From a virus (taxonomy: Duplodnaviria; Caudoviricetes): a DNA stretch of 52,841 nt. Positions 622 to 32,847 of this stretch are shown in pieces. The position numbers and the translations under genes are program-made. The notes below the pieces were generated by a model. It did not search any database, was not told the origin of the DNA, and saw nothing but the letters and a program-made list of their open reading frames with translations. Each line of letters begins with the position of its first letter. Within the stretch, counting starts at the first letter, position 1. The stretch spans positions 1-52,841 of IMG/VR virus record IMGVR_UViG_3300033475_000031. One strand, 5' to 3'.

Positions 622-1122
622 TTGAGAGTTGGGGGCCGTCAATTTCTGGCGGTTGGAGAGAGGCCAACTTTCGGCTCGGCAATCCCGGCGGCCAGCCTAT
701 TTTTCGAGAAGGATCACCCCGCGTTGTCCAAGAAGCGCGTTTCTTCCCGTCCAGCCGATGCCGCGCTGGTCCAGAAGGATCAGCAGATACGCCAGCGCAT
801 GCAGGACAGCGGCGATCCCATGCCGCTCGACTACATGGAAAAGAACATGCACTGGTACGCCGAGCAGGCGGACGAGTATGCGCGGCGCGCTGTGGCGATC
901 GGGGACACTGAGCGCTTCCGCGTGCGAAAGACCCGCGAGCGCAAGGAAAAGGAAAAGGCCCATTACGAGGCGATGGCAATCAAGATGCGCGCGCTCAATC
1001 AAGCATCTGCCGAATCGGCCGCCAACTACACCCACGCCCGTATCCAGTCGGTCAGCATCGGACAGAGCCGAGGCAGTCGCCAGCTCACCGTCGTGCTGGA
1101 AGGCTCTGACATCGACCTCTGA
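622..1122 (+). CDS. terS: Terminase small subunit (putative); start uncertain
   Basis: Directly upstream of terL with TGATG overlap; helical PLDYM...AANYTHARIQSV pattern seen in alphaproteobacterial phage TerS-like proteins. Confidence 0.6.
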   Translation: MRVGGRQFLAVGERPTFGSAIPAASLFFEKDHPALSKKRVSSRPADAALVQKDQQIRQRMQDSGDPMPLDYMEKNMHWYAEQADEYARRAVAIGDTERFRVRKTRERKEKEKAHYEAMAIKMRALNQASAESAANYTHARIQSVSIGQSRGSRQLTVVLEGSDIDL

Positions 1123-2870
1123 TGTCCGAAGTCACCGAGCGCCGTCGACCGAAAGCACTGGAGCGTCGCCGGCCCAAGGCTGACCTGAAGCCAGTACCCT
1201 ACACGGTGATGACCGAGGAAGCGGTCATCGATCAGCTCGATCAGGACTTGATCAAGGCCGGCCTCGGCAAGCTCAGTACCAAGCAGCAGCAGGCCAACGT
1301 CCTTCTCGGCAGTGCGGCGCGCCATATCTGCCTTGTCGGCGGTTCGCGCTCGGGCAAGACGACAGCGCTGGTGCGGGCGGTCGTCATTCGCGCGCTCAAG
1401 GTCAAGAGCCGTCACGCCATCCTGCGCTTCCGGTCGAATGCCGTTTGGCCCTCGATCGGCATGGACACCTTCCCGAAGGTGATGGCGACGTTCTTTCCGG
1501 GCATCCGGTATATCGCCAACAAGTCGCTCCACTACTTCGAATTTGAAAACGGCAGTCAGGTTTGGCTTGGCGGGCTCGACGACAAAGAGCGCACCGAGAA
1601 AATCCTCGGCAACGAATACTCGACCATCTATCTCAACGAGTGTTCGCAGATTCCCTACTCCTCGGTGATGATCGCGCTGTCGCGACTTGCCGAGAATGTG
1701 ACGGGCCTCAGGCAGAAGGCCTACTACGATCTCAACCCGAGTAGTACTGCTCACTGGACCAACATCCAGTTTGGCGACAAGAAGGACCCGATCAGCCGGC
1801 GTCCATTAACCAATCCAGAAGCGTACTGCCGCTTGTTCATGAACCCGCATGACAATGCGGAAAATCTCGACAAGGACTACCTTCTATCGCTCGACGATAT
1901 GCCCGAGCGATATCGCAAGCGCTTCCGCGATGGCGACTATGTCGACGAGAGCGACGATGCGCTGTGGAAGCTGACCACGCTCGCCAGATGCCGCCGATAC
2001 AGCGACGAGGTACCGCGCCTCACGCGTATCGTGGTTGCGGTCGACCCCTCAGGTGCAAAGAACCAGTTCGATGTCACGCATGATGAAATCGGCATCATGG
2101 TGGTGGGCATTGGTGAAGATGGCCACGGCTATGTGCTTGCAGATCGCACGATGCTGGGTGGTCCGCACGACTGGGCGCGGGCTGCAGTGTTCGCCTACCA
2201 CACTTACAAGGCCGATTCGATCGTGGCCGAGATCAACTACGGCGGCGCGATGGTCGAGTCGACCATCCGCACGGCCGATCCAGCGGTCCCGATCAAGGTC
2301 GTGACCGCGTCGCGCGGCAAGACGCCTCGCGCCGAGCCGGTGGCGGCGCTGTACGAGCAGGGCAAGGTTCATCACGTCGAGCGGCGCGACCCGACCGCAA
2401 TGCTGGGCATGGACCCTGAAGGGTTCGCCAAGCTGGAGGACGAGCAATGTGCCTTCACGACCCACGGCTATATCGGCGAGCGCTCCCCCAACCGGGCCGA
2501 TGCGCTGGTGTGGGCCGTGAGTGAGTTGATGGTCGAGCCGAGCGCAACCGGCTTCCTTGAGTACTACCGTCAGCAGGCCGATATCGCCCATGGCCGTACG
2601 CCGACCCCTTCAGCCAATACCCCGATCCCCCGGTCGTTTGCCGAAGCGATGCATGCCGGCACGCCGCTCGGGATGATCCCGACGCCGCAGGAGCCGGATG
2701 AGATCGTTCTGCGGACGGAACCAAACGCCAATTTCTACGTCCCTTCCAGTACTGGCCGGCCGGTCCGCGTTGCGTCCGATCGAATGGGCCTGCTCAGAAC
2801 CAAGGACGAAGTCGTGGCGCAGACGCTGATGCAACAAGGCTGCCGAAGGGTAGTGGCCGAAACAGTTTGA
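1122..2870 (+). CDS. terL: Terminase large subunit
   Basis: Walker A GGSRSGKT, Walker B IYLNE, coupling motif DLNP, RNase H-like nuclease VAVDPS...SPNRADA; ~110 aa C-terminal extension. Confidence 0.95.
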   Translation: MSEVTERRRPKALERRRPKADLKPVPYTVMTEEAVIDQLDQDLIKAGLGKLSTKQQQANVLLGSAARHICLVGGSRSGKTTALVRAVVIRALKVKSRHAILRFRSNAVWPSIGMDTFPKVMATFFPGIRYIANKSLHYFEFENGSQVWLGGLDDKERTEKILGNEYSTIYLNECSQIPYSSVMIALSRLAENVTGLRQKAYYDLNPSSTAHWTNIQFGDKKDPISRRPLTNPEAYCRLFMNPHDNAENLDKDYLLSLDDMPERYRKRFRDGDYVDESDDALWKLTTLARCRRYSDEVPRLTRIVVAVDPSGAKNQFDVTHDEIGIMVVGIGEDGHGYVLADRTMLGGPHDWARAAVFAYHTYKADSIVAEINYGGAMVESTIRTADPAVPIKVVTASRGKTPRAEPVAALYEQGKVHHVERRDPTAMLGMDPEGFAKLEDEQCAFTTHGYIGERSPNRADALVWAVSELMVEPSATGFLEYYRQQADIAHGRTPTPSANTPIPRSFAEAMHAGTPLGMIPTPQEPDEIVLRTEPNANFYVPSSTGRPVRVASDRMGLLRTKDEVVAQTLMQQGCRRVVAETV

Positions 2871-13876: not shown

Positions 13877-13889
13877 GAAGGAATCGTAA

Positions 13890-14297: not shown

Positions 14298-14310
14298 GGG
14301 AAAGTCTTAC

Positions 14311-14745: not shown

Positions 14746-17376
14746 ATGGCTGACGACTTCAAGACGGTGAAGCCGCCCAGTGCGCTGACCCGCTCGATCC
14801 AGCGCGTGCGCACGACCATCAAGGGCGTGAGTGAGGCGTGGTTCGGGCCGATGCAGCCCCTCAAGCCGCAGGCGCAGGACGCCAAGGGCCGCATCTGGGA
14901 CTACCCGGTCGCGTTCAACCTCAACTACCAGCCGCGCGCCAACATGGCGCTGTCGTTCCATGACCTGCAGGCGTTGGCCGACAACTGTGGCATCCTGCGC
15001 TCGGTGATCGAGACGCGTAAGGATCAGCTGGAGTCCATCGACTGGCATATCCAGCCGCGCAAGGTGAACAAGAAAACCGTTCTTCCGAGCGGCGATCAGA
15101 ATGATCGCATCAAGTACGCCTCGCAGCTGTTCATGTCGCCCAGCAAGGAGACCGACTGGCCGCAGTTCGTGCGCCAGATTCTGGAGCAGCATTTCGTCTA
15201 CGATGCACCGTCACTGGAGATGGTGCCCAATCGCTCGGGCCAGCTGTGCAACATCAAGGTACTGGATGGGGCGACGATCAGCGTCATGCTCGATGCCAAC
15301 GGCGGCATCCCGTCGCCGCCGAGCGTTGCCTACCAGCAGGTGTTGAAGGGCCTGCCGGCCGTCGACTTCACCAGCGACGAACTTCTCTACTACCCGCGCA
15401 ATCGCCGGCCGGGCTTCGCCTACGGCTACCCGCACGTGGCGCAGATTTACACCTACGTGAATCTCTCCATCAAGCGCGTCACCGAGCAGCTGGCCGCCTA
15501 TGATGGAGCCAATGCGCCGCACGGCGTGATGGAAGCCGGCACCAACATGACGATCGACCAGATCACGGCGATGCAGCAGTACTGGGACGGCATGTTCACC
15601 GGCAAGATCGTGAACCGGGCCAAGACGTGGTGGGTGCCCAACGGTTCGAAGTACACCGCACTCGGGGCCGGCGAAATCCTGTTCGACGAGTTCGACGAAT
15701 GGCTGGCCCGCGTCATCTGCTACTGCTTCTCGATCAGCCCGACGCCGTTCATCAAGCAGAACAACCGGGCGACTGCCGAGTCCTCGCAGGACATGGCACA
15801 GAACGAGGGCACCAAGCCGACGATGGTGTACCTCAAGCACCTGTTCGATCGCATCCTGAGCAAGCATCTCAACTCGCCCGATCTTGAATTTGTGTGGGAC
15901 CACGATTTCGAGACCGATCCCGCGCAGGCGGCCGAGATCACGACGACCTACGTCAAGAGCGGCATCATGACGATCGACGAGGCGCGCGAGGATTTGGGCA
16001 TGGATGCCTTTGGCGGCGCGGCCGGCGAGCCGATGGCGTTGACGGCGACCGGCTACGTCCCGATCGACCCGCAGGAGCGGACCGACATGGGGACCGAGGC
16101 GAGCATTGCTGCACGCCCCCTGCTGCCCCCGGGAATGGGCGCTCCCGGCCAGCCCGGCCAACCCGGGGGAGGCAAGGCCTTGGCAGGGCCCAATGGCGGG
16201 GCTGGCAAGCCCAACGCAGCACTTCCGCCCCCGGGCAAGGGTGGAGGGGCCGTCCCCGGGAAACCCGCCCTACAGGCCCCGCAGGGCCGTCCCGCAGCCG
16301 CCCCCGCGCAGGCCCGGGCAACGGCTTCAGTCAGTGTGAAAAAGCCCGGCCAGCCGGTCCAGAAGGTCCTGACTACGGAAGCGGTCTACGAGGTCGAGCG
16401 TCCGCTCGCCAATCCGGGCGGCCTGCAGGACTGGGCCCGCTCGATCGGCCTACAGCCGCTCGATCGTCTGGTGGTCAAATTCACCGGCTTCGTCGAGCCC
16501 GAGGCGACTGAGCCCTTTCTGCTGGTCGAGAACTACACCGCGCGGCTGGCCAAGGATGAGGATGGCTTCCGGCTCTACTTTGACTGGCAGCCGCTGCTCG
16601 ATCGCGCCAGCGAATTGCTGGCGGTCGACGGCACGCCCTCGATCCTGCTGACTGATCCGACCGATGCCGAGCTGCCTGAGGATGCGCAGGCCTACACGGG
16701 TGAGCTACTACTCGGGCCGGAAGAGATCACCAAGCGCTGGGACCTTGCGGCGTTCGACGCCGATCATGATCCGACGCCGGGCCAGAAGCGCGCCGGCAAC
16801 TACCGCATGGGCCACATCCAGTTCCAAGGCCTCGACCTCAGCATCGAGAACCCGGTCGGCTCGGCGCGGCGCGGTGACGACTGGAAAGTGATCATGCCGC
16901 ACCACTACGGCTACATCAAAGGCACGGTGGGCGCGGACGGCGATCATATCGATGCCTTCGTCGGACCGAACCCCGATGCCAAGATGGTCTATGTCATCGA
17001 CCAGAACGATCCTGATCGTGGCTCGTTCGACGAGCACAAGGTGATGCTCGGCTTCGACACGTGGACGGCGGCGAAGCTCGCCTACCAGCAAGCCTTCACC
17101 GATGGCAAGCAGCGCATCGGCAACGCGGCGATGCTGACCATGGACGCGTTCAAGCGCTGGCTCGCGACAGGCGACACTATGTTGCCGATCGGTGTGGCCA
17201 TGGCCAAGGACGTGACGATGGCGACCGGCCTCTATGGCTACGACCAAGGTCCGGTCCTGACGCCGCACGAGAAGCAGACGGACGAAGAGGATGAGAACAA
17301 CGATGTCGTGAGCGCTGGTCCGCAACCAGTACTCAAGAGCGACGCTCGACGCTTCTCGCGCTGGGTGGACTACTAG
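14746..17376 (+). CDS. Portal protein fused to a Pro/Gly linker, a degenerate Acb1-like 2H domain and an inorganic pyrophosphatase-like domain
   Basis: Portal core (YGYPHV...ARVICYCFSISP...GIMTIDEARE.LG); InPase motifs GNYRMGH...IENP.GS.R...HYGYI.GT.GADGDHID.FVG...FDEHKVMLGF. Confidence 0.9.
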   Translation: MADDFKTVKPPSALTRSIQRVRTTIKGVSEAWFGPMQPLKPQAQDAKGRIWDYPVAFNLNYQPRANMALSFHDLQALADNCGILRSVIETRKDQLESIDWHIQPRKVNKKTVLPSGDQNDRIKYASQLFMSPSKETDWPQFVRQILEQHFVYDAPSLEMVPNRSGQLCNIKVLDGATISVMLDANGGIPSPPSVAYQQVLKGLPAVDFTSDELLYYPRNRRPGFAYGYPHVAQIYTYVNLSIKRVTEQLAAYDGANAPHGVMEAGTNMTIDQITAMQQYWDGMFTGKIVNRAKTWWVPNGSKYTALGAGEILFDEFDEWLARVICYCFSISPTPFIKQNNRATAESSQDMAQNEGTKPTMVYLKHLFDRILSKHLNSPDLEFVWDHDFETDPAQAAEITTTYVKSGIMTIDEAREDLGMDAFGGAAGEPMALTATGYVPIDPQERTDMGTEASIAARPLLPPGMGAPGQPGQPGGGKALAGPNGGAGKPNAALPPPGKGGGAVPGKPALQAPQGRPAAAPAQARATASVSVKKPGQPVQKVLTTEAVYEVERPLANPGGLQDWARSIGLQPLDRLVVKFTGFVEPEATEPFLLVENYTARLAKDEDGFRLYFDWQPLLDRASELLAVDGTPSILLTDPTDAELPEDAQAYTGELLLGPEEITKRWDLAAFDADHDPTPGQKRAGNYRMGHIQFQGLDLSIENPVGSARRGDDWKVIMPHHYGYIKGTVGADGDHIDAFVGPNPDAKMVYVIDQNDPDRGSFDEHKVMLGFDTWTAAKLAYQQAFTDGKQRIGNAAMLTMDAFKRWLATGDTMLPIGVAMAKDVTMATGLYGYDQGPVLTPHEKQTDEEDENNDVVSAGPQPVLKSDARRFSRWVDY

Positions 17377-17379
17377 CCC

Positions 17380-19740
17380 ATGGACGGCTTGCTGAAGTAC
17401 GATCCCAATCACGGCAATCACGGCGAGTTCTCCAGCGGCGGGGGTAGTGGGGAAGGCGGCTCATCTCAGCCGACCCAGCAGCAAGCCGAGGCCGTGCAGC
17501 AGCAAAATGCGCAGACCTTGGCCGCCCGAGAAGCTTTGGACACGCGCGCGAAAGCCGTCTCGTTCAGCAGCCATCCCAAGAAAGCGGGCCATGTCAGCTG
17601 GTACGGCCGACTTCCTACTGGCCAAGAAGGTCCGGGCTACAAGCAAAACCTGAAGTATCAGGCGATCAATGCGCGCAACGCCAAAAGCCGGGGCGGCCTG
17701 CAGGGCAAGAGCAAGCTCGGCAAGCTGCTGAAGGGTGAAGTCACTGCCCCCATTGATCTTCTCAAATTCAACCAGCCTGAGTACTACCACGACGCCAAGA
17801 CCAAGAAGCGCTTCATCAAGCTGCCGTCTGGCATCGGGGTCGACTGGCAGGGCAAGCGCCCGCAAATCGACAAGTACGCCAACGCGGTCAAGCGCTGGCT
17901 CGATCAGGTCAAGCTCAACGCTCAGGTCCAGCTACGGAAGCGTGGTTCGGCCAAGCTCGCCAAGGCTGATTCTCTCGCCAAGGCCACGCCCGAGGAAGAA
18001 GCCGAGGCCGAGCGTATCGCGGCCGAGATCGCCGACGCGCTGGAGATGGGCGATGCCGAGCTGCTGGTGACGCTGCTCGATGAGGTCACTACTACCGCTG
18101 TGCGTGACGGGGTCGAGCAGACGCTGGGCAAGATGGGCTTGCCCGACACCAACGAGTTGTTTGACCGGGTTGATGATTACGCGGTGCGTTGGGCCGAGGA
18201 GCGTTCAGCCGAGCTGGTGGGCAAACGCTGGATCGACGGCGAGCTGGAGGACAACCCCAACGCCCGCATGCGCATCGACGAGACCACACGCCTCATGCTG
18301 CGCCAGACGATCGCTGATGGCCTGATGGACGGCTTCACGATGGAAGAGATCGCGGCGACGCTCAACGATCTCTTTCCGTTCAGCGAGGAGCGGGCCGAGC
18401 TGATCGCAGCTACGGAAATCAACCGGGCGCACAGCGAGGGCGCGCTCAAGGCGGCCAAGGATGCGCGCGACGATCTTGGCATTCAGTCGACCAAGGCGTG
18501 GATCGTGGCGGACACGCCGTGCCCGATCTGCGACGCCAATCACGAGCAGGGCTGGATACCGCTCGATGATCCTTTCCAGTCAGGTGATGACGCTTCGCCG
18601 GCTCATCCTTCCTGCCGCTGCGCCATCGTGTTCAAGGCTCAGCTGCCAAGCGAGGCCGCTGCAGCGGCCGAGGATGACGACAGCGAGCCGATCAACCTGA
18701 TGGCCAAGCACCTCGCGATCTTGGGCGACGCCTTGGTGGCTGAGCTTAAGGGTACGCCACTACTCAAGTATTCGGAAGATCAGCCGCGTGACGATCACGG
18801 CCGGTGGTCCGCTGAGGGCAGTAGTACTGATGGTAAAGTTGAAGTGCCTCAGCGCCTGATCGCTGGGCTGCCCAAATCGGCTTCTCAGCCTTTCAATACA
18901 TGGGATCAATTGAAGGCCATGGGCACGCAAGCGCGCGACCAGATGGCCGAATGGCTCGACAAGGGTAGTGGCGTCGTTTCCCAGATGGGCGGCATCAACA
19001 AAGACATGCCGCGATCCAAAGAAGAATGGCAGAAGCTGATCTCTGAAACGACGGGCAAGCCAGTACTCTTTATCGCGCCCTTGAAGGGCGAAGCCCGGGC
19101 CACTGAGAAGGTCGTGAAAGAAGAAGGCGGGGACTGGAGCAAGCTGCTCGACGTGACGCGGGGCATGATCGCGGTCGACAAGCCCAGCGAAGTGGAAGGC
19201 GTTTTGCGCCGGCTTGAGCAGAGCGGTGTTAATGTGGCCCGCCAAGCCAAGGATCGAATCAACCAGTCTTTGCCGGATGGCTATCGCGCCGATGTGCTGC
19301 TCAGCCCCGTGATGCGTAATGGCATGATCACCGAGCTACAGGTCGGCGTTAAGAAGATGTTCATGACCAAAGAGACCGAAGGCCACGCGATCTACGAGCA
19401 CGATCGTGGTATTACCGGCAAGTATGTGGGGAAGCCTGAGTCCGAATGGTCTGCGCAAGATAAGCTTGTGCATGCCCGGAACGTTTCCCAGATGAAGGAC
19501 TTGTACGAGCGGACTTGGAATGAGGTCATGGCGGGAAGCCACAGCTACAACGCTCATCAGATTGATAAGTCAGAGTATTTCTACGTCGATGTCGACGGCA
19601 CGACTTATCGCGGAACGCGCACCTACATGATCGTGAGCGATATGTGGAAGAATGGCGCGTGGGTGCCTTCCAATCTCGATACCACTACCGTTCTGTCAAG
19701 CGGTCCCTTCACCGGGCCTCCCGGCAAGGGTAAGGAGTAA
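17380..19740 (+). CDS. MuF (SPP1 gp7-like) head morphogenesis protein with C-terminal RelA/SpoT-type synthetase domain
   Basis: MuF: RAELIAATE..RA, K.W, CPIC, PAHPSCRC; synthetase-like: LKGEARATEKV, LLDVTR, GYR.D, ELQV, H.IYE. Confidence 0.88.
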   Translation: MDGLLKYDPNHGNHGEFSSGGGSGEGGSSQPTQQQAEAVQQQNAQTLAAREALDTRAKAVSFSSHPKKAGHVSWYGRLPTGQEGPGYKQNLKYQAINARNAKSRGGLQGKSKLGKLLKGEVTAPIDLLKFNQPEYYHDAKTKKRFIKLPSGIGVDWQGKRPQIDKYANAVKRWLDQVKLNAQVQLRKRGSAKLAKADSLAKATPEEEAEAERIAAEIADALEMGDAELLVTLLDEVTTTAVRDGVEQTLGKMGLPDTNELFDRVDDYAVRWAEERSAELVGKRWIDGELEDNPNARMRIDETTRLMLRQTIADGLMDGFTMEEIAATLNDLFPFSEERAELIAATEINRAHSEGALKAAKDARDDLGIQSTKAWIVADTPCPICDANHEQGWIPLDDPFQSGDDASPAHPSCRCAIVFKAQLPSEAAAAAEDDDSEPINLMAKHLAILGDALVAELKGTPLLKYSEDQPRDDHGRWSAEGSSTDGKVEVPQRLIAGLPKSASQPFNTWDQLKAMGTQARDQMAEWLDKGSGVVSQMGGINKDMPRSKEEWQKLISETTGKPVLFIAPLKGEARATEKVVKEEGGDWSKLLDVTRGMIAVDKPSEVEGVLRRLEQSGVNVARQAKDRINQSLPDGYRADVLLSPVMRNGMITELQVGVKKMFMTKETEGHAIYEHDRGITGKYVGKPESEWSAQDKLVHARNVSQMKDLYERTWNEVMAGSHSYNAHQIDKSEYFYVDVDGTTYRGTRTYMIVSDMWKNGAWVPSNLDTTTVLSSGPFTGPPGKGKE

Positions 19741-19744
19741 TACC

Positions 19745-20782
19745 ATGGACTTGATCAAGTATTCAGATGACCTAATCAAGTTCAACCAGAACCACGTGCC
19801 GCCCGGCGATTCCACGGGGGGCCAATTCGCCTCATCGGACGGTAGTAGCTCAGGCGGCGGCGATGTTCTCAAAGGCAAGGACGGCAAGCCGCAGACGTTC
19901 TATCACGGCACGGCCTCGGGCAGCCCGCACGAGGCGCGTGAGGGTGGCTACTTCCTGACCACCAGCAAGAACCTCGCAGGCGTCTATGGCGACAAGGGCA
20001 AGGTACTGGCTGTCCATCTCAAGATGAACAAGCCGCTCGATCTGCGCGACAAGAAGAACCTCAGCGGTTACCAGACTGGGCGTAAGGGCAAGGAAAGCAT
20101 CACGGCCTATGCCAAGCGTACCGGGCATGACGGTGTCATCGATCCCGCTGGCAGCTACATCGCCTTGTCCAAGGACCAGTTGGTCCAGAAGGCGCAGGGC
20201 GCGGATGATCTTCTGAAGTTCAATCCCCACCACGTGGCGGCCGGATCGCCGGAAGGCGGCCAGTTCGCGAGCGCCGATGGCGCGACTGGTGAAGGGGGCA
20301 GCGGTCAGAGCAAGAACAAGGATCGCAAGGAACTGGAGGGAATGGTCGATCGTCTGCACGAGGCGGATGGCGGCTTCACCTACAATCCGCTGAGCGGCGA
20401 GGAAGCGGTAAAGGGCTACGCGGTGTCACCCTATCCGGAGCGTTCCTTCGCCATGGATGCAAAGAGTATTACCCCGGACCATATCGACGAATATGTGCAG
20501 AAGAACCTTGACCAAATGACCCAGCCCAACCATTTCATCGGGGCTTGGCATGATCCATCGACTGGCAAGGCGTTCCTTGACGTGTCGGTGCGGGTAGACA
20601 CACCTGAGGAAGCTCGTAAGCTGGCGCTGGCACATGACCAGAAGGCCTATTTCGACTTCCAGACGTTCAAGTCGGTTGAGGTCAATGCCAACGCCACGTC
20701 TGGCGGGATAGTAGGTAAAGGAGATTTCTCATGGCGACCAAGCCCTCTCTTACGTTGGTCAAGCCCGGGCCCCGAGGCCTGA
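19745..20782 (+). CDS. Two-domain head cargo protein: ART-PolyVal-like domain plus GGFT/GxW...LDVS...Q domain
   Basis: AAGGAG RBS, ATG 19745; DGKP..FYHGT, GYFLT....A..Y, LKMNKPLD, GHDGVI; two KFN.xH..GGQF tags. Confidence 0.8.
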   Translation: MDLIKYSDDLIKFNQNHVPPGDSTGGQFASSDGSSSGGGDVLKGKDGKPQTFYHGTASGSPHEAREGGYFLTTSKNLAGVYGDKGKVLAVHLKMNKPLDLRDKKNLSGYQTGRKGKESITAYAKRTGHDGVIDPAGSYIALSKDQLVQKAQGADDLLKFNPHHVAAGSPEGGQFASADGATGEGGSGQSKNKDRKELEGMVDRLHEADGGFTYNPLSGEEAVKGYAVSPYPERSFAMDAKSITPDHIDEYVQKNLDQMTQPNHFIGAWHDPSTGKAFLDVSVRVDTPEEARKLALAHDQKAYFDFQTFKSVEVNANATSGGIVGKGDFSWRPSPLLRWSSPGPEA

Positions 20783-20895
20783 CGGCCGACCAGACGCTGG
20801 AGCTTTTCACCAAGGTCAGTGGCCGAAAGGCCACGCCCGAGGAAGAGGCTGCGCTGCGCAAGAAGGTGGCCGAGCGCGAGGCCAAGCAATCCTGA
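20731..20895 (+). CDS. 54-aa small protein not in the ORF track (MATKPSLTLVKPGPRGLTADQTLELFTKVSGRKATPEEEAALRKKVAEREAKQS)
   Basis: AAGGAG RBS 7 nt upstream, phage-typical codons, overlaps the end of the upstream gene, followed by a terminator. Confidence 0.75.
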   Translation: MATKPSLTLVKPGPRGLTADQTLELFTKVSGRKATPEEEAALRKKVAEREAKQS

Positions 20896-20927
20896 AAACG
20901 CTTCCGTAGCTGAAGCGCCCGGCCCCG

Positions 20928-20957
20928 AGCCCCGGTTCACCCCCGGGGCTTTTTGTT
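20928..20957 (+). terminator. Rho-independent terminator
   Basis: AGCCCCGG-loop-CCGGGGCT followed by TTTTGTT. Confidence 0.8.
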
Positions 20958-21065
20958 GCCCGGATTTACAATTCCTTACCTATGGTAGGGTTTTAACAAA
21001 ACCACAATCCTTTGTGGCGTTTGTCATCGCACCTGAATAGGACCCAAAGAGCGAGTGGAGTGACC

Positions 21066-22652
21066 ATGGCCCGAAATACCGCACCGGACATCGAGTTCTT
21101 CGCGGAAATTCACAAAGTAGACGAAGAGCAGCGTACCGTTTTCGGCTACGCCTCGACGGATTGTCGAGATCGGCAGGGCGAGATCGTCACCCGCGACGCA
21201 ATCGCCAAGGCACTTCCAGACTACATGCTTTGGAAGAACGTGCGCGAGATGCACCAGCCGAGCGCTGTGGGCCGCGCCATCGAAGCCAACATGGACGAGA
21301 AGGGCCTCTACTTCGGGGCCTATGTGGCTGACGACCGGGCATGGAAGAAGGTCAAGGACAAGGTCTACAAGGGCTTCTCGATCGGCGGACGCGTGCTCGC
21401 GCGCGACCCCAACGACAAGACGATCGTGACCGGCGTCATGATCACCGAGATCAGCCTTGTCGATCGGCCGGCGAATCCTGAGGCCAAGTTCGACTGGTTC
21501 AAGCGCGCCGATGATCACCTCGCCTTCACGCCAACCCAGTACTGGGGCTGCGGCTGCAAGGACCATCAGCACATCGCCAAGGCCGAAGCACAGGAGTGCA
21601 TGGCCGATCAAGCCGCCGACCTCAAGAAGCGGCTCGATGACGGCGGCCTGCTGAAGTTCAACCAGAACCATGCGCCGGCTGGCGGCCCCGATGGGGGTCA
21701 GTTCACCGACGACAAGGGTGGTGACGGCGACAGCATCAAGAACCAGTACGGTGGTCGCCGCCCGAAGGCGAATGCCGAGACTGGCAAGAATGCCGGCAAG
21801 TTCCAGCTCAAGCTCGCGAGCGGTCGCGCTCCCAAGGCCGGCCCGATCGCCGGCAAGGAGGGCCCGCACAACGTGGATCATTTCGTCGATCAGTACGGCA
21901 ACCTCCATCGTGCCGGCAAGGACGGCAAGATGCACGAGGTCCAGAAGCTCGATGAGGTGCGTGAGATTTTGAAAGCCGCTTTTGACGAAGCCGAAGCGAT
22001 GTCCAAGATCGACTCAGACGGCTTCGATACCGAGACCGGCGAGTTCATGGGCAAGCGCGAGTTCAGCCAGAAGGAACGCCAGCAGGACGCCAAGGCTGGC
22101 ATCGCCATGCCGGGCGGTGGCTATCCGATCAAGGACACCGAGGACCTGCACAACGCCATTCAGGCCTTCGGCCGCGCCAAGGACCCTGCCGCGACTAAGG
22201 CGCACATCAAGCAGCGCGCCAAGGCGCTGGGTGCCGAAGATCAGCTGCCCAAGGAATGGACCAGCGGCGGCGCGGACGATGATGTGAACAAGGCTATGAC
22301 GCCGCCGCGTCACATCGAGACCAGCCGGTTCGCTGGCCACTTCAAGAGCAAGGCCGAGGCCGAGACATTGGCCAAGCAGCACGGCGAAGCTGCCGACAAG
22401 GCGACCAAGCTCCACAACAAGCACATGAAGCTTTCGGAAGAGAGCGCCAAGGCTGGCAATCCAGCAGGTGCTGCCGCTCACCGGGCCATCGCCAGCAGCC
22501 ATCGCACGATGGCGGCCCGGCACTCCATGCTCAGCAACAAGTACAGCAAGCTTGCCGAGTCGCATGGCAAGTGGGCTGCCCCGGAAGGCAATGACGCCGT
22601 GTCTGTCGCCAAGCGCGCGTTGGCCGAAAAGCTCGCGAAGCTGGCGGCCTGA
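21066..22652 (+). CDS. Prohead maturation protease (XkdF/HK97-like) with C-terminal cargo modules
   Basis: VFGYAST...DRQGE, REMHQ..AVG, YKGFSIGG, EISLVDRPANP; GGAG RBS. Confidence 0.9.
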   Translation: MARNTAPDIEFFAEIHKVDEEQRTVFGYASTDCRDRQGEIVTRDAIAKALPDYMLWKNVREMHQPSAVGRAIEANMDEKGLYFGAYVADDRAWKKVKDKVYKGFSIGGRVLARDPNDKTIVTGVMITEISLVDRPANPEAKFDWFKRADDHLAFTPTQYWGCGCKDHQHIAKAEAQECMADQAADLKKRLDDGGLLKFNQNHAPAGGPDGGQFTDDKGGDGDSIKNQYGGRRPKANAETGKNAGKFQLKLASGRAPKAGPIAGKEGPHNVDHFVDQYGNLHRAGKDGKMHEVQKLDEVREILKAAFDEAEAMSKIDSDGFDTETGEFMGKREFSQKERQQDAKAGIAMPGGGYPIKDTEDLHNAIQAFGRAKDPAATKAHIKQRAKALGAEDQLPKEWTSGGADDDVNKAMTPPRHIETSRFAGHFKSKAEAETLAKQHGEAADKATKLHNKHMKLSEESAKAGNPAGAAAHRAIASSHRTMAARHSMLSNKYSKLAESHGKWAAPEGNDAVSVAKRALAEKLAKLAA

Positions 22653-22696
22653 TCACACCCACTACCCCAACTCCCCTCTATTCAGGAGATACACCG

Positions 22697-24400
22697 ATGC
22701 CCGAGAAGTCCCAAGCGCAGATCGCAGAAGATGCCCTGAAGGCGCTGCAGGCTGCTACCGCTCCGCTCGCCAAGGCCGCTGTCGATGAGGCGCAAGCCGC
22801 GCTGGACGAGGCCAAGAAGTACGACGCACAGGTGACCGAGGCGCTGACCAAGGCGGCTCCCCCGGAACAGGATGCGGACGGCGACTACGACGGCGACACC
22901 AAGAAGCCCAAGACGCAGGTGGGCGATGGTGACGGGGACGAGGACTGTGATGAGGCGGCGGCCAAGGCGGCCGATCTGCTCGACCTCAGCAAGACGGCTC
23001 ATGAGGTCGTCAAGGCGTACATGCTCAACGCGGTCGACGAGACGGCCAAGGCCGAAAACTCGCCGTGGTCAAACTTCACCAAGACGGCGAAGGACTACTA
23101 CTCCTCGCTCAGCCAGACGCTGCAGCAGTGCATCGACGCGCGCCGCAAGTCGATGACCACGCTGACCGAGGTGGTCGCCAAGGCGGACAACGACAATCGC
23201 AAGAAGAGCACCGGCATCCTGATCGCGGCGCACGAGACATTGGCCAAGCATGCCGAGGCCGGCGTCGAGATGTGCAAGGGCATGATCGATGCAGCGGTGT
23301 GGCCGCGTCAGGAGATCGTGCTCGATCCGCCGATGACCTGCGACACCATCAAGAAGGGCTACATGAGCATCGCGTCCAAGGACGATCTGATGCGCGCTGT
23401 CGCCGAGTACAAGAACGTCGATCCGGGCGATCAGCCCCCGGTCTACGCCCACATCTTCAACGCGGCGGCGGCGCTCAAGACGGCCCTGCCGGAAGGCTGG
23501 CACAAGCCCGTGACGCTGCCGTCCGAACACAGCGCTTCCACCGGCAGCGACCAGACGGCCCGTTGGAAGAACATCAGCGAGGCCGACAAGGCAGCGGCGA
23601 TGAAGAAGGGCATGACGATCGTCGGCCCGAGCGCCGGCCTGCTCGCCACCATCCGCGCCATTGGAGCCAGCCAGCTGCTGGAGCGCATGGCGATCGTCAG
23701 CAAGGACGATCCCAACATCGGCGCGCTCAAGGAATGGATGGGCAAGGGTGACCAGCTGCTGGTCTCGATCATCGGCAACGAGGCCGAGGCGATCCGTATC
23801 CTCGATATCCCGACCTTCCCCGCCGCGCAGGCGCTGATCAAGGCCGATCACTGGACCGACGTTGCCGCCAAGGCGGTGATCGACAGTCTCAGTGACGAGA
23901 TGCCGGCCGAGCAGCGCGCGATCCGCAAGGACGTTTCGGAACGGCTGGCGGCGTCGGGCGAGGTGTTCAAGAAGGCCGAACTGCCCCAGCAGCAGACCGA
24001 AGGCTTGGTCGAGAAGGCCGAGCTGGAGAAGGTGGTCGAGGAGCGCGACGCGCTCAACGGCCGGCTGACCAAGTTCACCGAGGCACTGGTGCCGTTGACG
24101 CGCAACGCCCAGTCGCAGCGTGACGAGATCAAGAAGATGGCGGCTGAGAATGCCGCTTTGAAGGCCAAGATCACCGAGCTTGAAACCAAACCGATGCCGT
24201 CCAAAGGGCGAGTCGGGGCGGGCGGCAAGGTGGAGAAGGCCGACGACGGTGGATCGGGTACCGGCACTGAAGTTACGCCCGGCTCTGCCAAAGACCTGCT
24301 GACCAAGGCCGGAACGCTGCCGCCGGGGGCACGTGGCACTGCACTCATTGAAGCCGCGCATCGTTTCCGCGCGGAAGAGGAGGGCGACGAAGCGGCGTAA
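22697..24400 (+). CDS. Scaffold/internal head protein
   Basis: Between protease and capsid genes; Ala/Lys/Glu-rich with a C-terminal coiled coil and many hydrophobic-X-K sites. Confidence 0.7.
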   Translation: MPEKSQAQIAEDALKALQAATAPLAKAAVDEAQAALDEAKKYDAQVTEALTKAAPPEQDADGDYDGDTKKPKTQVGDGDGDEDCDEAAAKAADLLDLSKTAHEVVKAYMLNAVDETAKAENSPWSNFTKTAKDYYSSLSQTLQQCIDARRKSMTTLTEVVAKADNDNRKKSTGILIAAHETLAKHAEAGVEMCKGMIDAAVWPRQEIVLDPPMTCDTIKKGYMSIASKDDLMRAVAEYKNVDPGDQPPVYAHIFNAAAALKTALPEGWHKPVTLPSEHSASTGSDQTARWKNISEADKAAAMKKGMTIVGPSAGLLATIRAIGASQLLERMAIVSKDDPNIGALKEWMGKGDQLLVSIIGNEAEAIRILDIPTFPAAQALIKADHWTDVAAKAVIDSLSDEMPAEQRAIRKDVSERLAASGEVFKKAELPQQQTEGLVEKAELEKVVEERDALNGRLTKFTEALVPLTRNAQSQRDEIKKMAAENAALKAKITELETKPMPSKGRVGAGGKVEKADDGGSGTGTEVTPGSAKDLLTKAGTLPPGARGTALIEAAHRFRAEEEGDEAA

Positions 24401-24470
24401 GCCGACACGGTCAGCGAACTATCCTAACCGCTCATACCACTCAACCTACTACCCCTAAGGGGAGATAAAG

Positions 24471-26096
24471 ATGCCTGAAGAGAACCGCCAAGTCATGCCG
24501 GCCGATGCAGTGCACGACCGGATGATGCAGATGATCAACGGCACCAGCTATGCCGACAAGGATCGTTTTGGCTACATGAGCCGCAAGCGTGCGGGCAACA
24601 CGGTCGACCTGTTCAAAGCGGCTTTCAAAGAGCCGATGCGGGCCGAGCAGCTGTACAGCGCAGAGCTGAAGAAGAGCGTCACGCTGGCGACCGGCCTGAC
24701 CTACTACGACCTGCGCGCCCCGGCGCTCAACCTGTTCCCGACCGTCACCCCGCTGCGCAACAGCCTGCCGCGCAACCAGCGGCCGAATCCGGGTGACGCG
24801 GCGCACTGGAAGTCGGTCGACGCGATCACCGGCTCGGGCTTCCCGTACATGGGCTGGGTGCCGGAAGGCAAGCGGTCCGCGTCGATGAGCTACACGACCA
24901 ACGACCACACACTCTCCTATCAGACGATGGGCGAGGAAGACTCGATCACTGAAGAGGCGCGCTTCGCGGCTCAAGGTTTCGAGGACGAAGACGCGTTGGT
25001 GCAGCTGCGCCTCCTGCTCAAGATGTTCGTCAAGGAAGAGGCGGGCCTGCTCGCCGGCAACCATGGCACGACGCTGTCCACGCCGGCTACGCCGACCCTG
25101 TCCGCTGCTGGCTCGGGTGCTACCCTGCCGGCCGCTACCTACTCGGTGATCGTGGTCGCGCTGACGCCGGAAGGCTACCTCAACAGCTCGCTGTCGGGCG
25201 GCGTCGCGGTGGCGCTGACCATCACGGGCAACGATGGGGGCACCTACACCCTCAACGGTGGCTCGTCTGCCCAGTCGACCAACGCGACCCAAGCGGTCAC
25301 GCTCGGCCAGACCCTGTCGGCCAACACCAACACCCAGCCGGGTGCGGTGGCCTACGCGTGGTACGTCGGCACGGCCGGCAGTGAGACGCTGCAGGCGATC
25401 ACCACGATCAACAGCGCCACCTTCGCGGCCACGCTCGCGGGCGGCCGGCAGGCGGCCACGGCGGTGACCGGCGATCACTCCAAGAACGCCACGGCGTTCG
25501 ACGGACTCCTCATCACCACGTTCGCCGCGTCCAACTCGTATCTCAACGCGCTCGCGACCGGCACGCCGGGCACGGGCACGGTCCTGACTTCGTCCGGTCA
25601 GGGCTCGATCAACGAGATCGACACGATGAACAAGACGATGTGGGACACCAACCGCATCAGCAACACCGTGATGTACGTCAACTCGCAAGAGCTGAAGAAC
25701 ATCGCGGCCAAGGTGCTGAACGGTGCGTCCGCACCGCTGCTGCGCTACGCGACCGACGCCACGGACGGCGGCGTGCCCGAGTACAAGATCACGGCCTCGG
25801 GCGTGATCTCGTTCTACTACAACCCCTACACCCCGGACGGCGGCGTGAAGATGCCCATCAAGGTGCATCCGAACATGCCGGCCGGCACGATTCTCGGCCG
25901 CGCCGAAATCCTGCCGCCTTGGTACGTCTCCAACAACGTGCCTGAGGTCGCGGTCGTCCAGACCCGACAGGACTACTACGCCGAGGTGTGGCCCAAGACG
26001 ACTCGCGTGCAGTTCTACGGCGTCTATTCGCAGGAAGTCCTCGCGGTCTACGCCACGTTCGCTGCGGGCATCATCTACAACATCGGCAACGGCTAA
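24471..26096 (+). CDS. Major capsid protein with an inserted beta-sandwich domain
   Basis: Position, very strong codon bias, GLTYYDL..PA..L.P..TPLRN.LPR, GWVPEG.R, K.EE..LL.GN, HP.MP.GTI. Confidence 0.88.
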   Translation: MPEENRQVMPADAVHDRMMQMINGTSYADKDRFGYMSRKRAGNTVDLFKAAFKEPMRAEQLYSAELKKSVTLATGLTYYDLRAPALNLFPTVTPLRNSLPRNQRPNPGDAAHWKSVDAITGSGFPYMGWVPEGKRSASMSYTTNDHTLSYQTMGEEDSITEEARFAAQGFEDEDALVQLRLLLKMFVKEEAGLLAGNHGTTLSTPATPTLSAAGSGATLPAATYSVIVVALTPEGYLNSSLSGGVAVALTITGNDGGTYTLNGGSSAQSTNATQAVTLGQTLSANTNTQPGAVAYAWYVGTAGSETLQAITTINSATFAATLAGGRQAATAVTGDHSKNATAFDGLLITTFAASNSYLNALATGTPGTGTVLTSSGQGSINEIDTMNKTMWDTNRISNTVMYVNSQELKNIAAKVLNGASAPLLRYATDATDGGVPEYKITASGVISFYYNPYTPDGGVKMPIKVHPNMPAGTILGRAEILPPWYVSNNVPEVAVVQTRQDYYAEVWPKTTRVQFYGVYSQEVLAVYATFAAGIIYNIGNG

Positions 26097-29679: not shown

Positions 29680-29969
29680 GGGACCTGAACTTTGACAAAT
29701 GGATCGTGCGCGTCCTGCGCTCGATCGGCGGCAGCTGGGAACAATGGGAGGATGAGCTAACCTACGATCGCTTCGTTGCACTGATGGAATCCGAAGAGGA
29801 AGTACCGCCCTTGTATGTGACTGGGTATCTCGTCGCAGTTTATTTCGGGGCCATGAAGCCCTCCCATAAGTCTCACGGTTCGGCACCTTCGGGTGCCGAT
29901 GCTTTCATTTCTGAGTTCGGCGCATCGGGCCAGTTGACCGGATCAATGGGGATTTGGGGCAATGGCTGA
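29622..29969 (+). CDS. Tail assembly chaperone frameshift extension (gpT-like)
   Basis: Open -1 frame GGSQPLSRG...WIVRVLRSIGGSWEQWEDELTYDRF; overlaps the tape measure start. Confidence 0.75.
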   Translation, partial: GGSQPLSRGASSGDPLDALRDLNFDKWIVRVLRSIGGSWEQWEDELTYDRFVALMESEEEVPPLYVTGYLVAVYFGAMKPSHKSHGSAPSGADAFISEFGASGQLTGSMGIWGNG

Positions 29970-32847
29970 CGACAATGAGATGCAGGCCAAGATTACGGCC
30001 GACAATGAGGACCTGAAGCAGAAGGCCAAGGAGTCCGCTGAAGCCATCAAGCAGATGGCTGCGCAAATGAAAGAGGTTGAGAAAAACCTAGATAGTTTGC
30101 GAGAAAAGATTGTTGAGGCCTTCAGCTTCGCAGCGATCGTTGAGTTTACTGAGCATTTCGCCAAGCTCGGTGATCAGGCCCTTGAGATGGCCGCTCAGTT
30201 GGGTACTACCGTAGAGGCGGTGACCGAGCTGCAGACTGCTTACAAGATCATGGGCATCGAAGGTGGGCTCAGTGCTCGTCAGTTGATTGTCCTTCAGCGT
30301 GATCTGTCCTTGGCGGCGACTAATAGCTCATCTGTGCAGGCCAAGGCGTTGTCGAACCTCGGCGTCAATATGGACGAGGTCAAGAGCAAGCTGAATGATG
30401 GCAAGGCGTTGCTCGAAATCATGCGCAAGGCATGGCAGGACAATGCCGATGGCGCAAACAAGCTCGCCAACTTTCAACGCATCTTCGGCCTCTCGTTGGC
30501 GCAAAATATTCCCTATCTCCTCAAGACCGATGAGGAAGTGGCCAAAGTTAATGAAACGGCTAAGGAGATGGGCACCATCTTTGGCGAACGGACCGCCAAA
30601 GCAATGTCCGATTCAGGAGAAAAACTTAATACCTTTTGGACTAGTACCCGAGGTCTGGGGGAAAGCATCTTTATGGTGCTCAAACCAGCATTGGACCTGT
30701 TCTTTACTACACTCACTGACATTGTTTTGTGGCTGCGCTCAGGAAGCGAAGCCATTGCCAATTTCATCAACTACTCCCCGGATGTCGTAAACCTCTCTTC
30801 TGCTTTCACGACACTTTGGCAGCAGATCGTCAAGTTCGACCAGACGATGGTCGAGCTTATGGGCACGTTTGATGCAGGAGCGCTCCTTAATTTCACGGGC
30901 TTCTTGGCCGATGTCTCAACCATGGCTCGTGATACAGCCAAGGAAATCGCTTGGATCACGGCAGCAGTTAAAGATTTGGGCGCATGGCTGACGCGAGTTA
31001 AGGAGGAGTCCAAAGAGAACAAGCTCTTTGAAACTTCATCGGAAAAAAAGGAGATCGACGATCTAACCACTAAGATCGAACTGTTGAAGGGTCAGCGGGA
31101 ACTAGCTGCTCAAGCAGATTTGATCACACATAAAAATACAGCTGCGGAAATAGAGAAGGTTATCAAGGAGTCTCAGGACAGGATCGAGATTCTGTCAAAG
31201 CTTCACGTCGATCGTTTGGAAGCCATTCGCAAAAAGCAGCTCGATGACGAAAAGAAAGCTTGGGACGACTATGGACAGTATGTTCTAGGTATTCTCGATT
31301 CGATCGAAGCCGCCAATACTGCAAATCATCATCCCAAGGAAAAGCCGGAAGGCAAAAAAGACGATGGTAAGCGTCAGCCTCCGGGTATTACTACGGGTGG
31401 TGGCGGCAAGCATCATCCGGCTCCTGAGTTCATGAAGGAGTGGAAGGAAGCCCTTCAGCAACAGCAGATCGACAACAACGATTTCTTCGATAAGGCCAAG
31501 CAGACCGAGCAGGCCTATTGGGAAAGCAAGCTTGCCTTTGTCCAATCCAACCTGAAGCAGATCACGGCTCAGTACATCGCGTCAGGTCAGACGCAGGAGC
31601 AGGCTGCTAGGTCGGTGCGCGATCTGCAATTTGGACTCGAATCTCAGATTTTCGAGCTGAAGAAAGCCAACGCCAACAAAGCCATTGAAGAGGCGAAGAA
31701 AGCGCTCGATCGCGATCTCGCTAACTTCAAAGAGCAGCTGGATGCCAAGCAGATTTCTGAATCCGAGTGGTATGAAAAATCCAGAGCTGCCCATGCTACC
31801 TACAGCGCCTTTTTGGAGAGTCAGGGCGCAAAGGATACCGAGAAGTGGAAAGATGAGCTTCGTCAGAGGGACAAGCTCGACGCTGATCATCTGAAGAATG
31901 CTTCCAAGGTCTGGGTCGATGCTTTCAACTACATCGATCAGCAGATCAACACGATGCTGAATGGCGTCCTGCAGGGCACCCAGACTTGGGAAAAGGCCAT
32001 GCAGAACTTCTTCAAAAACATGGCCATCAGCTTCATCACCCAGATCGCCCAGATGACCATCAAGTGGCTCGCGTTTAAAGCCCTGATGACGTTGAGTGGC
32101 GGCACGGTGAACATCGGCAACCCGTTCAACGCGTTAAGCGGTATCGGTAGCGCGATCGGTGGGTTGGTCGGTGGCGGTGGCGCTGGGGGAGGTGCAGCTG
32201 GCGGCGGGGCCTCTTCTAGCGAGAAGCAGCTGACTACAGCCGTTAACGCAGGAACAGCGGCTACCAAGACCCTTGCTACTGCGACTGGCAACAACACGAT
32301 CGGCACGATCGCCAATACAGGCGGCATTCTTCAGCAGATAGTCGGGGCGGTTCAATGGATTGCCGGAATGCTCGGCCTGACCACAACTACTACTGCACAA
32401 GTTGGTACCAACATTTCGTTGGAAGCTTCGAACATCGCGCTTGCCGCTGAGATGGTAGGCCTTCAGTTTGCAATCGAAGCCCTGACCATCGTTATGGCGA
32501 CCAAGCCTCCGGGCCTTGCGACTGGTGCGTGGTCCATCCCTAACGACATGCATGCGATCGTCCACAAGGGCGAGATGATCATTCCGGCTGCCCATGCCGA
32601 GGCGCTGCGCAGCGGTGCGGGCCTCAACTACGGAAGCAATGGCTCGTCGGGCCCGAGCACGCCGGTCGGTGGCGGTGGTGGCAGTGGCGGGGGCACGATC
32701 GCCGTCACCATCAATGCGATGGACTCGCGCAGCCTGCAGACCTTCCTGCAGGCCAATCCGCAATCGCTGGCGCGCGCCATGGGTGTGATCGGCCGCAACG
32801 GTAGTACTCAGGTGGCAACGGCGGCAGGGCAGGGCCGCAGGTTCTAA
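29962..32847 (+). CDS. Tape measure protein
   Basis: 961 aa, helical; C-terminal LATGAW.IP.D..A.VHKGEMIIPA and INAMD..S motifs. Confidence 0.9.
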   Translation: MADDNEMQAKITADNEDLKQKAKESAEAIKQMAAQMKEVEKNLDSLREKIVEAFSFAAIVEFTEHFAKLGDQALEMAAQLGTTVEAVTELQTAYKIMGIEGGLSARQLIVLQRDLSLAATNSSSVQAKALSNLGVNMDEVKSKLNDGKALLEIMRKAWQDNADGANKLANFQRIFGLSLAQNIPYLLKTDEEVAKVNETAKEMGTIFGERTAKAMSDSGEKLNTFWTSTRGLGESIFMVLKPALDLFFTTLTDIVLWLRSGSEAIANFINYSPDVVNLSSAFTTLWQQIVKFDQTMVELMGTFDAGALLNFTGFLADVSTMARDTAKEIAWITAAVKDLGAWLTRVKEESKENKLFETSSEKKEIDDLTTKIELLKGQRELAAQADLITHKNTAAEIEKVIKESQDRIEILSKLHVDRLEAIRKKQLDDEKKAWDDYGQYVLGILDSIEAANTANHHPKEKPEGKKDDGKRQPPGITTGGGGKHHPAPEFMKEWKEALQQQQIDNNDFFDKAKQTEQAYWESKLAFVQSNLKQITAQYIASGQTQEQAARSVRDLQFGLESQIFELKKANANKAIEEAKKALDRDLANFKEQLDAKQISESEWYEKSRAAHATYSAFLESQGAKDTEKWKDELRQRDKLDADHLKNASKVWVDAFNYIDQQINTMLNGVLQGTQTWEKAMQNFFKNMAISFITQIAQMTIKWLAFKALMTLSGGTVNIGNPFNALSGIGSAIGGLVGGGGAGGGAAGGGASSSEKQLTTAVNAGTAATKTLATATGNNTIGTIANTGGILQQIVGAVQWIAGMLGLTTTTTAQVGTNISLEASNIALAAEMVGLQFAIEALTIVMATKPPGLATGAWSIPNDMHAIVHKGEMIIPAAHAEALRSGAGLNYGSNGSSGPSTPVGGGGGSGGGTIAVTINAMDSRSLQTFLQANPQSLARAMGVIGRNGSTQVATAAGQGRRF

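Follow-up and report, generated by a model that had tools for sequence, protein, structure and literature searches.

In phage T4, the capsid-targeting sequence of the internal proteins is trimmed off by the gp21 prohead protease, an S77 enzyme that cuts after Glu, and in HK97-type maturation an S78/U35 protease cuts the capsid protein after Lys. Polyvalent proteins and MuF-portal effectors are a further described class: portal-InPase and MuF-RelA/SpoT fusions, ART cargo, and polyvalent proteins encoded near late genes are already in print, and such effectors are predicted to be packaged and injected (available parts of PMC5512222, PMC3482391, and PMC5576092). Processing of polyvalent proteins has been ascribed to metallopeptidases embedded in them (Iyer et al. 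2017, PMC5512222, available part). Here we describe a peptide element that recurs at the junctions between effector modules in the head genes of a tailed phage, represented by IMG/VR virus record IMGVR_UViG_3300033475_000031 (52,841 bases; completeness estimate, 87%); we refer to this whole stretch of DNA as the window.

The element consists of a hydrophobic-x-K/R site, a conserved leader, and a linker, and it opens every module in the window except those of the portal protein. On balance we favor a reading in which the S78 prohead protease would cut after the K/R inside the prohead, at the same kind of site as in capsid maturation. Cutting would turn the fusion proteins into separate enzymes, each with its N terminus at the leader's aromatic residue or close to it. 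The leader would then be kept on each released enzyme as a module-autonomous signal, most likely for incorporation or retention in the head or for exit with the DNA.

A conserved leader ahead of effector modules

The composite element spans ∼35 to 40 residues. It starts with a short hydrophobic stretch ending in hydrophobic-x-K/R, continues with the leader, [YF]-[SDN]-P-[DN]-[QH]-(P-R)-(optional V-P-A-G-x)-x-x-x-G-[RQ]-[WF]-[TAS], and ends in a Gly/Ser-rich linker. We derived column frequencies from 1,007 copies in the 226 top-scoring proteins, aligned to the profile. Column −3 is L, V, or I. The first leader position is Y (65%) or F (32%), together 97% of the 916 copies, out of 1,007, that are aligned there; it is followed by S/D/N, P (64%), D (56%), Q (75%; H in 13%), P (83%), and R (99%). 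The optional V-P-A-G-x insert is present in ∼31% of aligned copies, and the leader ends in D, E/D, any residue, G (99%), R (65%; Q in 21%), W (73%; F in 26%), and T/A/S, after which the Gly run begins. Autoproteolysis by Asn-Pro or Asp-Pro chemistry was considered and rejected because leader positions 2 and 3 vary (S/D/N, then P/E/D/A).

The first-pass annotation of the window, made from the letters alone, had reported five full copies in the MuF, cargo, and protease-scaffold genes, as well as a half-copy at 17755, most copies being followed by a Gly/Ser linker and a different domain. All of these are present (Table 1). A motif hidden Markov model (HMM), trained exclusively on 19 copies from elsewhere with the window left out, scored the window copies at 14.0 to 33.4 bits; the next-best window position scored 4.9, and the best position in each of 20 codon-shuffled windows scored 5.9 to 11.0. 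The half-copy was not detected by the HMM. A loose regular expression (regex) applied to all six frames of the window returned the five full copies and one unrelated match at nucleotide (nt) 30826. Pfam matches and AlphaFold2 models likewise place a Gly/Ser-rich stretch, and then a differing domain, behind each copy. In both AlphaFold2 models the motif stretches have a predicted local distance difference test (pLDDT) score of <50 and the neighboring domains are confidently modeled, the picture that a linear motif would be predicted to give; in the model of copy 2, a helix lies immediately upstream of the motif.

At the DNA level the five window copies have a mean column identity of 58% and differ at synonymous sites; this comparison rejected recent gene conversion between them. 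Most window copies are of a His, long-loop, GQF type, and one is of a QPR, short-loop, GRW type. A cargo orthologue, P0121 (72% identical), carries the other variant, LIK-YSPEQARDDHGRW, at the junction occupied by copy 4; the two variants are therefore interchangeable. Because the DNA copies differ at synonymous sites and the orthologue has swapped variants, selection acts on the motif peptide rather than on the DNA.

The peptide is a widespread module opener in head-associated multi-enzyme proteins. An exhaustive profile search of 1.84 billion representative proteins yielded 7,517 matches at an E value of ≤1e-3, 1,115 at ≤1e-10, and 62 at ≤1e-30, with up to 13 motif stretches in one protein; in a search of longer proteins, in which only 8,000 candidates were scored, the profile matched 813. 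Many of 80 loci with a related capsid gene contain motif copies, often several each, for a total of 41 distinct copies, including the five of the window. Among the 226 proteins and 1,007 copies described above, the spacing between copies has a median of 249 amino acids (aa) (quartiles, 194/249/315). In 126 of the 226 proteins the N terminus is no more than 40 aa away from the first copy, and in only 6 is the C terminus within 60 aa of the last; the motif almost always precedes modules and hardly ever trails one. In two open reading frames (ORFs), L090 and L112, Met directly precedes the aromatic residue of the leader. We are close to certain that the element is a real, selected module leader.

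The modules themselves are diverse. In the precomputed Pfam column for the top 120 motif proteins from the search of longer proteins, the families were Zeta_toxin (17), ADPrib_exo_Tox (15), ART-PolyVal (12), Phage_Mu_F (10), DUF7178 (9), GNAT (8), Phage_portal/Portal_Mu (6), ParBc (3), Acb1 (3), InPase (1), and Peptidase_S78 (1), and many had no family. Rescanning six proteins placed the domains between motif copies, for example portal, motif, ART, motif, Zeta; one architecture comprised four leader copies followed by a C-terminal S78 domain. Separately, P0043, a motif-bearing portal-MuF-ART polyprotein, contains an intein at aa 1267 to 1569, right behind its MuF domain (Intein_splicing, E = 6.5e-9).

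A window-type capsid gene was found in only 9 of 105 motif loci derived from pattern searches. That the leader is conserved in phages whose capsids differ greatly speaks for a conserved partner and is just as compatible with a function in the recipient cell. Among isolates, a short tblastn query for the motif retrieved three records, of which only Nocardia phage P3.1, with a protein starting with the motif, was convincing; the 118 matches to a second short query of isolates were low-complexity chance matches.

The motif also occurs outside head genes. Scanning one genome per species with a strict pattern gave 58 bacterial motif loci, mostly in Alphaproteobacteria. The proteins are ∼300 to 420 aa long and consist of a conserved N-domain of ∼120 to 140 aa (without a Pfam or PHROG family), the motif, and a variable C terminus (L190, L193, L194, L195, L207, and others, as well as L017, L022, and L024). 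Several copies per genome are present in Nitrospirillum, Azospirillum, Methylocapsa, and others; a profile search of five genomes gave four to seven matches in each. The C termini include Ntox50 in L202 (E = 1.7e-26) and DUF6572 in L024. A constant N-part, a junction, a variable C-terminal toxin, and paralogues, the hallmarks of polymorphic toxins, are thus found together in these two-domain relatives and not in the window genes.

Such proteins could mean that the motif is a cassette junction in the style of polymorphic toxins, at which recombination swaps variable effectors onto constant trafficking parts, with head cargo being just one use. The two-domain architecture with several members per genome, the Ntox50 C terminus, the presence of the same architecture next to capsid genes in IMG/VR viral contigs, and the orthologues with different motif variants at one junction all speak for this explanation. 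However, the DNA of the copies is conserved no further than the peptide requires, which argues against a simple recombination site, and strong peptide conservation needs a function at the protein level. We therefore consider a cassette junction unlikely as the explanation of the motif, and it would in any case be compatible with a role in processing or targeting. Because the leader is also present in protease-negative genomes (see below) and in chromosomal toxin-like genes, it is a general opener of effector modules, for which head cargo is the main but not the sole context.

Two Nitrospirillum genomes (G051:C1:359645-372166 and G052:C5:364040-373535) have one window-type capsid gene each (42% identity), with one motif match ∼8 to 11 kb from the capsid gene and three more dispersed elsewhere. 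This arrangement may point to a resident cluster of capsid genes served by cargo genes in trans, and dispersed motif copies alongside a single capsid gene fit loading in trans.

The upstream site and the prohead protease

The protease-scaffold protein of the window has an S78 domain whose residues H64 and S106 do not vary among 35 relatives and are presumably catalytic. None of the six head proteins of the window contains HExxH; therefore, S78 is the only recognizable protease among them. The capsid protein has a putative maturation site, ELKK-S, located where the first-pass annotation had seen it (Table 1), and a hydrophobic-x-K tripeptide directly precedes the conserved capsid core in 66 aligned IMG/VR relatives (the row of Brevundimonas phage Polewnik is out of register). 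The same annotation had noted that hydrophobic-x-K recurs through the scaffold. Compared to residue shuffles, it is enriched in MuF (24 versus 12.7 ± 2.9), the protease-scaffold protein (16 versus 10.0 ± 2.7), and the second scaffold-like protein (22 versus 10.9 ± 2.9) but not in the portal (11 versus 10.5) or capsid (5 versus 4.3) protein. Since such tripeptides are common in helical proteins, the additional module boundaries proposed at VQK, ITK, MAK, and the like are not verifiable.

In the capsid-family loci, K/R lies within four residues upstream in 41 of 41 distinct copies, compared to 43% of random positions in the same ORFs, and a hydrophobic residue stands two positions before the K/R in 38 of 41 (random positions, 16%). 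We compared the upstream residues with protease content in 50 other motif contigs; the DNA pattern used to find these leaves the upstream residues out. S78 or S78_2 was detected in 23 of the 50 and a ClpP-type protease in none. The S78-clan-positive contigs have K/R at −1/−2 in 41 of 42 copies (21 of 22 contigs), versus 2 of 9 copies (1 of 5 contigs) in five complete or nearly complete genomes without a match to S78, S78_2, ClpP, S49, or S77 (Fisher P = 0.0014), a comparison with only five protease-negative genomes and imperfect HMM detection. One of these five has a subthreshold S78_2 candidate together with K-type junctions. In contig fragments without a protease match, K/R is at −1/−2 in 10 of 34 copies.

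Contexts other than K are specific to lineages: I-E-F, P-F-x-A, L-x-N, K-D, or x-M-D precedes the aromatic residue. L097 and P0116 are among the lineages with special upstream residues, either Asn at every copy (L-x-N before Y/W) or I-E-F, K-D, or x-M-D. These lineage-specific residues may reflect other processing enzymes, and the overall pattern fits a universal leader to which a variable site, matched to the protease, is joined. In this phage, we think it probable, from the covariation and the capsid site, that the upstream hydrophobic-x-K/R is cleaved by S78.

The whole motif might instead be nothing but the recognition element of the processing protease, docking on the P′ side and having no role after cutting. 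Its presence at nearly every module junction, including that between the protease and scaffold parts of the window protein, would be expected from this, and polyvalent proteins are predicted to undergo processing (Iyer 2017, PMC5512222, available part). However, the motif is constant while the residues upstream differ by lineage, it opens many proteins that have nothing to remove, including those in which it directly follows Met, and it is present in complete genomes without a detectable head protease; a pure docking role is accordingly improbable.

Alternatively, junctions might be cut not by the prohead protease but by zincin metallopeptidases that are themselves modules of the polyvalent proteins, following the self-processing model (Iyer 2017, PMC5512222, available part). 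HExxH is indeed found in 89 of the 226 top proteins. Yet it is missing from the window's head proteins and from 91 of the 156 proteins with four or more motif copies, and the K/R site tracks S78-clan proteases, so that zincins are a most improbable source of the cuts. Until now, self-cutting by a metallopeptidase has been the only proposal for how the domains of polyvalent proteins are separated and addressed, and such an enzyme is absent from most motif-rich proteins.

A further alternative concerns the fate of the enzymes: cleavage could expose the N-terminal Tyr/Phe as an N-degron for ClpS/ClpAP, making the injected enzymes short-lived, with the linker as an unfolding handle. ClpS recognizes L, F, Y, and W, and Asp as the second residue is unfavorable. 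The near-invariant Y/F at the first position and the unstructured Gly-rich stretch that comes next are what an N-degron would have, and many of the cargo domains are toxic enzymes (ART, Zeta toxin, and RelA/SpoT-like). Against it, 30% of copies have Asp in second place, proteins starting with Met-Phe would not expose the aromatic residue, and the ∼15 conserved residues that follow are left unexplained. We regard an N-degron as very unlikely.

Several observations weigh against cutting by S78 followed by a leader that acts on head cargo, in addition to the limits of the covariation given above. Of the 1,007 copies, 745 are aligned at column −1, and K occupies it in 84% of these, not in all; some proteins consistently have D, A, K-A-G, N, or F in its place. 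Uniformity at −1 among the copies of one protein exceeds chance (0.82 versus 0.65), which may stem from duplication or shared ancestry rather than from protease specificity. The 876-aa portal protein contains no motif copy despite its cargo modules. Four of seven complete motif-bearing phage genomes have no match to S78, S78_2, ClpP, S49, or S77, and two of these four still encode two-module proteins. Finally, a window-type portal, MuF, S78, or capsid gene is absent within 6 kb in 54 of the 58 bacterial loci, and the two such loci that we looked at are flanked by housekeeping genes. The first-pass annotation had anticipated an association of the tag with Lys-specific prohead proteases and head modules; the K/R in 21 of 22 S78-clan contigs agrees with this, and the complete genomes without a detectable head protease and the chromosomal toxin-like genes do not, so that the link is strong but not exclusive.

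For the leader's own role we tentatively propose a signal for packaging, retention, or ejection, an assignment that we hold with less than even confidence. More speculatively still, leader and upstream site could form a general, portable code of address and processing by which proteins are loaded into the capsids of tailed phages and possibly of gene transfer agent-like particles. If so, any enzyme bearing the code would be packaged, released by cutting, and delivered along with the DNA, whether it is fused in a polyprotein, encoded by a separate head-adjacent gene, or chromosomal. The junction element makes cargo processing and packaging directly testable, and it provides a sequence handle for packaged anti-defense and takeover enzymes in metagenomes, including uncharacterized domains that lie between two copies. 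Should the leader be a packaging or delivery signal, it would also be a tag for loading chosen proteins into capsids.

Cargo modules and gene layout of the window

The window segment is the head module of an uncultured siphophage, with genes in the order portal, MuF, cargo, protease-scaffold, scaffold-like, and capsid; the window also includes the terminase and tape measure genes (Table 1). The cargo genes thus lie among late/virion genes, as do those of polyvalent and MuF-portal effectors. For the cargo gene, a start at 19652 was dropped in favor of the ATG listed. The second scaffold-like protein has no Pfam or PHROG family.

Table 1. Coordinates of genes, domains, and motif copies in the window
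Feature	Position (nt)	Strand	Support or remark
Terminase large subunit	1122..2870		
Portal with C-terminal cargo extension, 876 aa	14746..17376	+	Pfam Phage_portal E=1.9e-17; phrog_2662 E=9.8e-62
InPase domain on portal, aa 679-806	16780..17163		Pfam E=1e-46
MuF gene, 786 aa	17380..19740	+	Pfam Phage_Mu_F E=1.5e-11
Motif copy 1, LLK-YDPNHGNHGEF, MuF N terminus (aa 4), then Gly/Ser linker	17389..17430	+	HMM 14.0 bits
Half-copy DLLK-FNQ, first half only, ahead of MuF domain proper	17755..17775	+	Regex core only
MuF domain, aa 308-416	18301..18627		Pfam E=1.5e-11
Motif copy 2, LLK-YSEDQPRDDHGRW, MuF aa 461, between MuF domain and RelA/SpoT-like module	18760..18807	+	HMM 32.0 bits
MuF C-terminal module, aa ∼485-784	18832..19731		AlphaFold2 pLDDT 78.8
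Cargo gene, 345 aa	19745..20782	+	ATG 19745 behind AAGGAG
Motif copy 3, LIK-FNQNHVPPGDSTGGQF, cargo protein N terminus (aa 10)	19772..19828	+	HMM 24.8 bits
ART-PolyVal domain on cargo protein	19877..20095		Pfam E=1.1e-8; 36.4 bits versus cutoff 31.2
Motif copy 4, LLK-FNPHHVAAGSPEGGQF, cargo aa 156, between two cargo modules	20210..20266	+	HMM 33.4 bits
Conserved cargo domain, aa 188-322	20306..20710		AlphaFold2 pLDDT >90 for aa 190-320
S78 prohead protease fused to scaffold-like C-terminal part	21063..22652	+	Pfam Peptidase_S78, S78_2
S78 domain, aa 17-147	21111..21503		Peptidase_S78 33.4 bits versus cutoff 21; S78_2 30.2 versus 24
Motif copy 5, LLK-FNQNHAPAGGPDGGQF, protease-scaffold aa 196, between protease domain and scaffold-like part	21648..21704	+	HMM 25.4 bits
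Second scaffold-like protein, 567 aa, hydrophobic-x-K-rich	22697..24400	+	
Major capsid protein	24471..26096	+	phrog_13692 E=9.7e-86
Putative capsid maturation site ELKK-S, aa 65-69	24663..24677		
Tape measure	29962..32847		

Of the five enzyme names that the first-pass annotation had given to the cargo, pyrophosphatase, ART, and RelA/SpoT-like are upheld, the first two by Pfam matches to InPase and ART-PolyVal (Table 1). In the portal protein, the portal domain (∼aa 26 to 466) is followed by a Pro/Gly/Ala-rich linker, a module at aa ∼565 to 665, and then InPase. The name "Acb1-like" for aa 565 to 680 is not supported: aa 556 to 680 have no Pfam match at an E value of ≤5, and BLASTP against the Acb1-bearing proteins P0140 and P0050 gave E values of at least 0.2.

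With Pfam RelA_SpoT the MuF C-terminal module scores 17.6 bits (E = 0.0049), short of the cutoff of 27, and phmmer gave a weak match to Tas1 (E = 0.27). A Foldseek search with its AlphaFold2 model returned 41 PDB matches at an E value of ≤0.001; Tas1, RelP, SAS1/2, CapRel, and Rel are among the matches listed, and the best is Tas1 (6ox6_A; E = 2.8e-7; template modeling [TM] score [target], 0.54). Judging from this model, MuF aa 485 to 784 are predicted to adopt a RelA/SpoT-like pyrophosphokinase fold.

The second cargo module, aa 188 to 322, is a conserved domain that in other phage proteins often lies right behind a motif copy, and its homologues have in common PDGGFTY...GFAVSPYPERS...GAWHDP...HDQxAYFD. 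Its confident model had no clear fold match among 48,161 chains (best Z, 4.3), with no lyase among the 50 entries listed, leaving the "SAM-lyase-like" assignment unsupported. Portal plus InPase and MuF plus the RelA/SpoT-like module each join a virion domain to an effector enzyme, as is characteristic of polyvalent and MuF-portal effectors. We infer that the phage packages an InPase pyrophosphatase, a RelA/SpoT-like pyrophosphokinase, an ART-PolyVal ADP-ribosyltransferase, and a further domain.

No near DNA match to the window was found in 50,697 phage records. The nearest isolates by capsid protein are the Brevundimonas phages Polewnik and Strzyga (∼37% identity); both have portal-MuF and protease-scaffold fusions without the motif, and Polewnik is without cargo modules. 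The portal gene ends in a TAG that shares its frame with the MuF start, which comes one codon later (window 17374-17382). Portal, cargo, and MuF are a single polypeptide in the relatives P0023 and P0043, and Polewnik has a portal-MuF fusion; the in-frame stop may represent stop codon readthrough or a recent split. If the stop is read through, motif copy 1 would come straight after the portal's cargo.

Several features lie elsewhere in the window. Three tandem paralogous small genes (13448-14721; 142, 135, and 136 aa) lie between a tail-like gene and portal, and their products have in common ...LNNTTV(F/W)F...SIDVGR(V/T)G...NPKGP...; the third paralogue and the adjoining 146-aa gene have no PHROG family. 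A 1,313-aa protein (8694-12635) matches a tail-protein PHROG (E = 7.6e-35); its position between terminase and portal is unusual for a tail gene. Within the tape measure gene, window 30001-32000 has a G+C content of 0.506, compared to ∼0.60 elsewhere, and a 729-aa protein encoded on the minus strand (50471-52660) matches an amidoligase PHROG (E = 3.9e-35).

Comparison with described systems

The window resembles the polyvalent and MuF-portal effectors in that it encodes InPase, ART, and RelA/SpoT-like effectors among late genes, with InPase on the portal and the RelA/SpoT-like module on MuF. In those proteins an embedded zincin (HExxH) is a frequent, nonobligatory hub domain, unlike in the window's six head proteins. 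No conserved junction peptide is described in the available parts of PMC5512222, PMC3482391, and PMC5576092, the reports on those effectors, nor in the available parts of bioRxiv 10.64898/2026.04.10.717836 and PMC12991175; the motif may be visible in the alignments of Iyer 2017. Searching the literature for motif strings as literal text retrieved only unrelated papers. We found no account in print of the junction element, its census, the position of the leader, or the link to a protease-type site, subscription journals and supplements aside.

The pre-toxin junctions of polymorphic toxins (VENN in CdiA; pre-toxin domains, PMC3482391, available part) resemble the element in the split between a constant N-part and a variable C-terminal toxin and in the presence of paralogues. 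Their sequence is different, however, and the element described here has many repeats per protein and is tied to phage head proteins rather than to type V, VI, or VII secretion.

Two features of HK97-type maturation recur in the window, an S78 protease whose His and Ser are invariant and a hydrophobic-x-K ahead of the capsid core. In the window, by contrast, the same kind of site also lies before cargo modules, where it is coupled to a conserved leader. The T4 capsid-targeting sequence is likewise a short N-terminal peptide with a prohead protease site, a scheme that broadly agrees with the model of the first-pass annotation, and its position before a module matches that of the leader. The sequences differ, as do the proteases (S78 rather than S77), and whereas the T4 peptide is removed, the site here is upstream, so that the leader would stay on the cargo. 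Also unlike the T4 peptide, the leader is repeated inside polyproteins and is conserved across very diverse phages.

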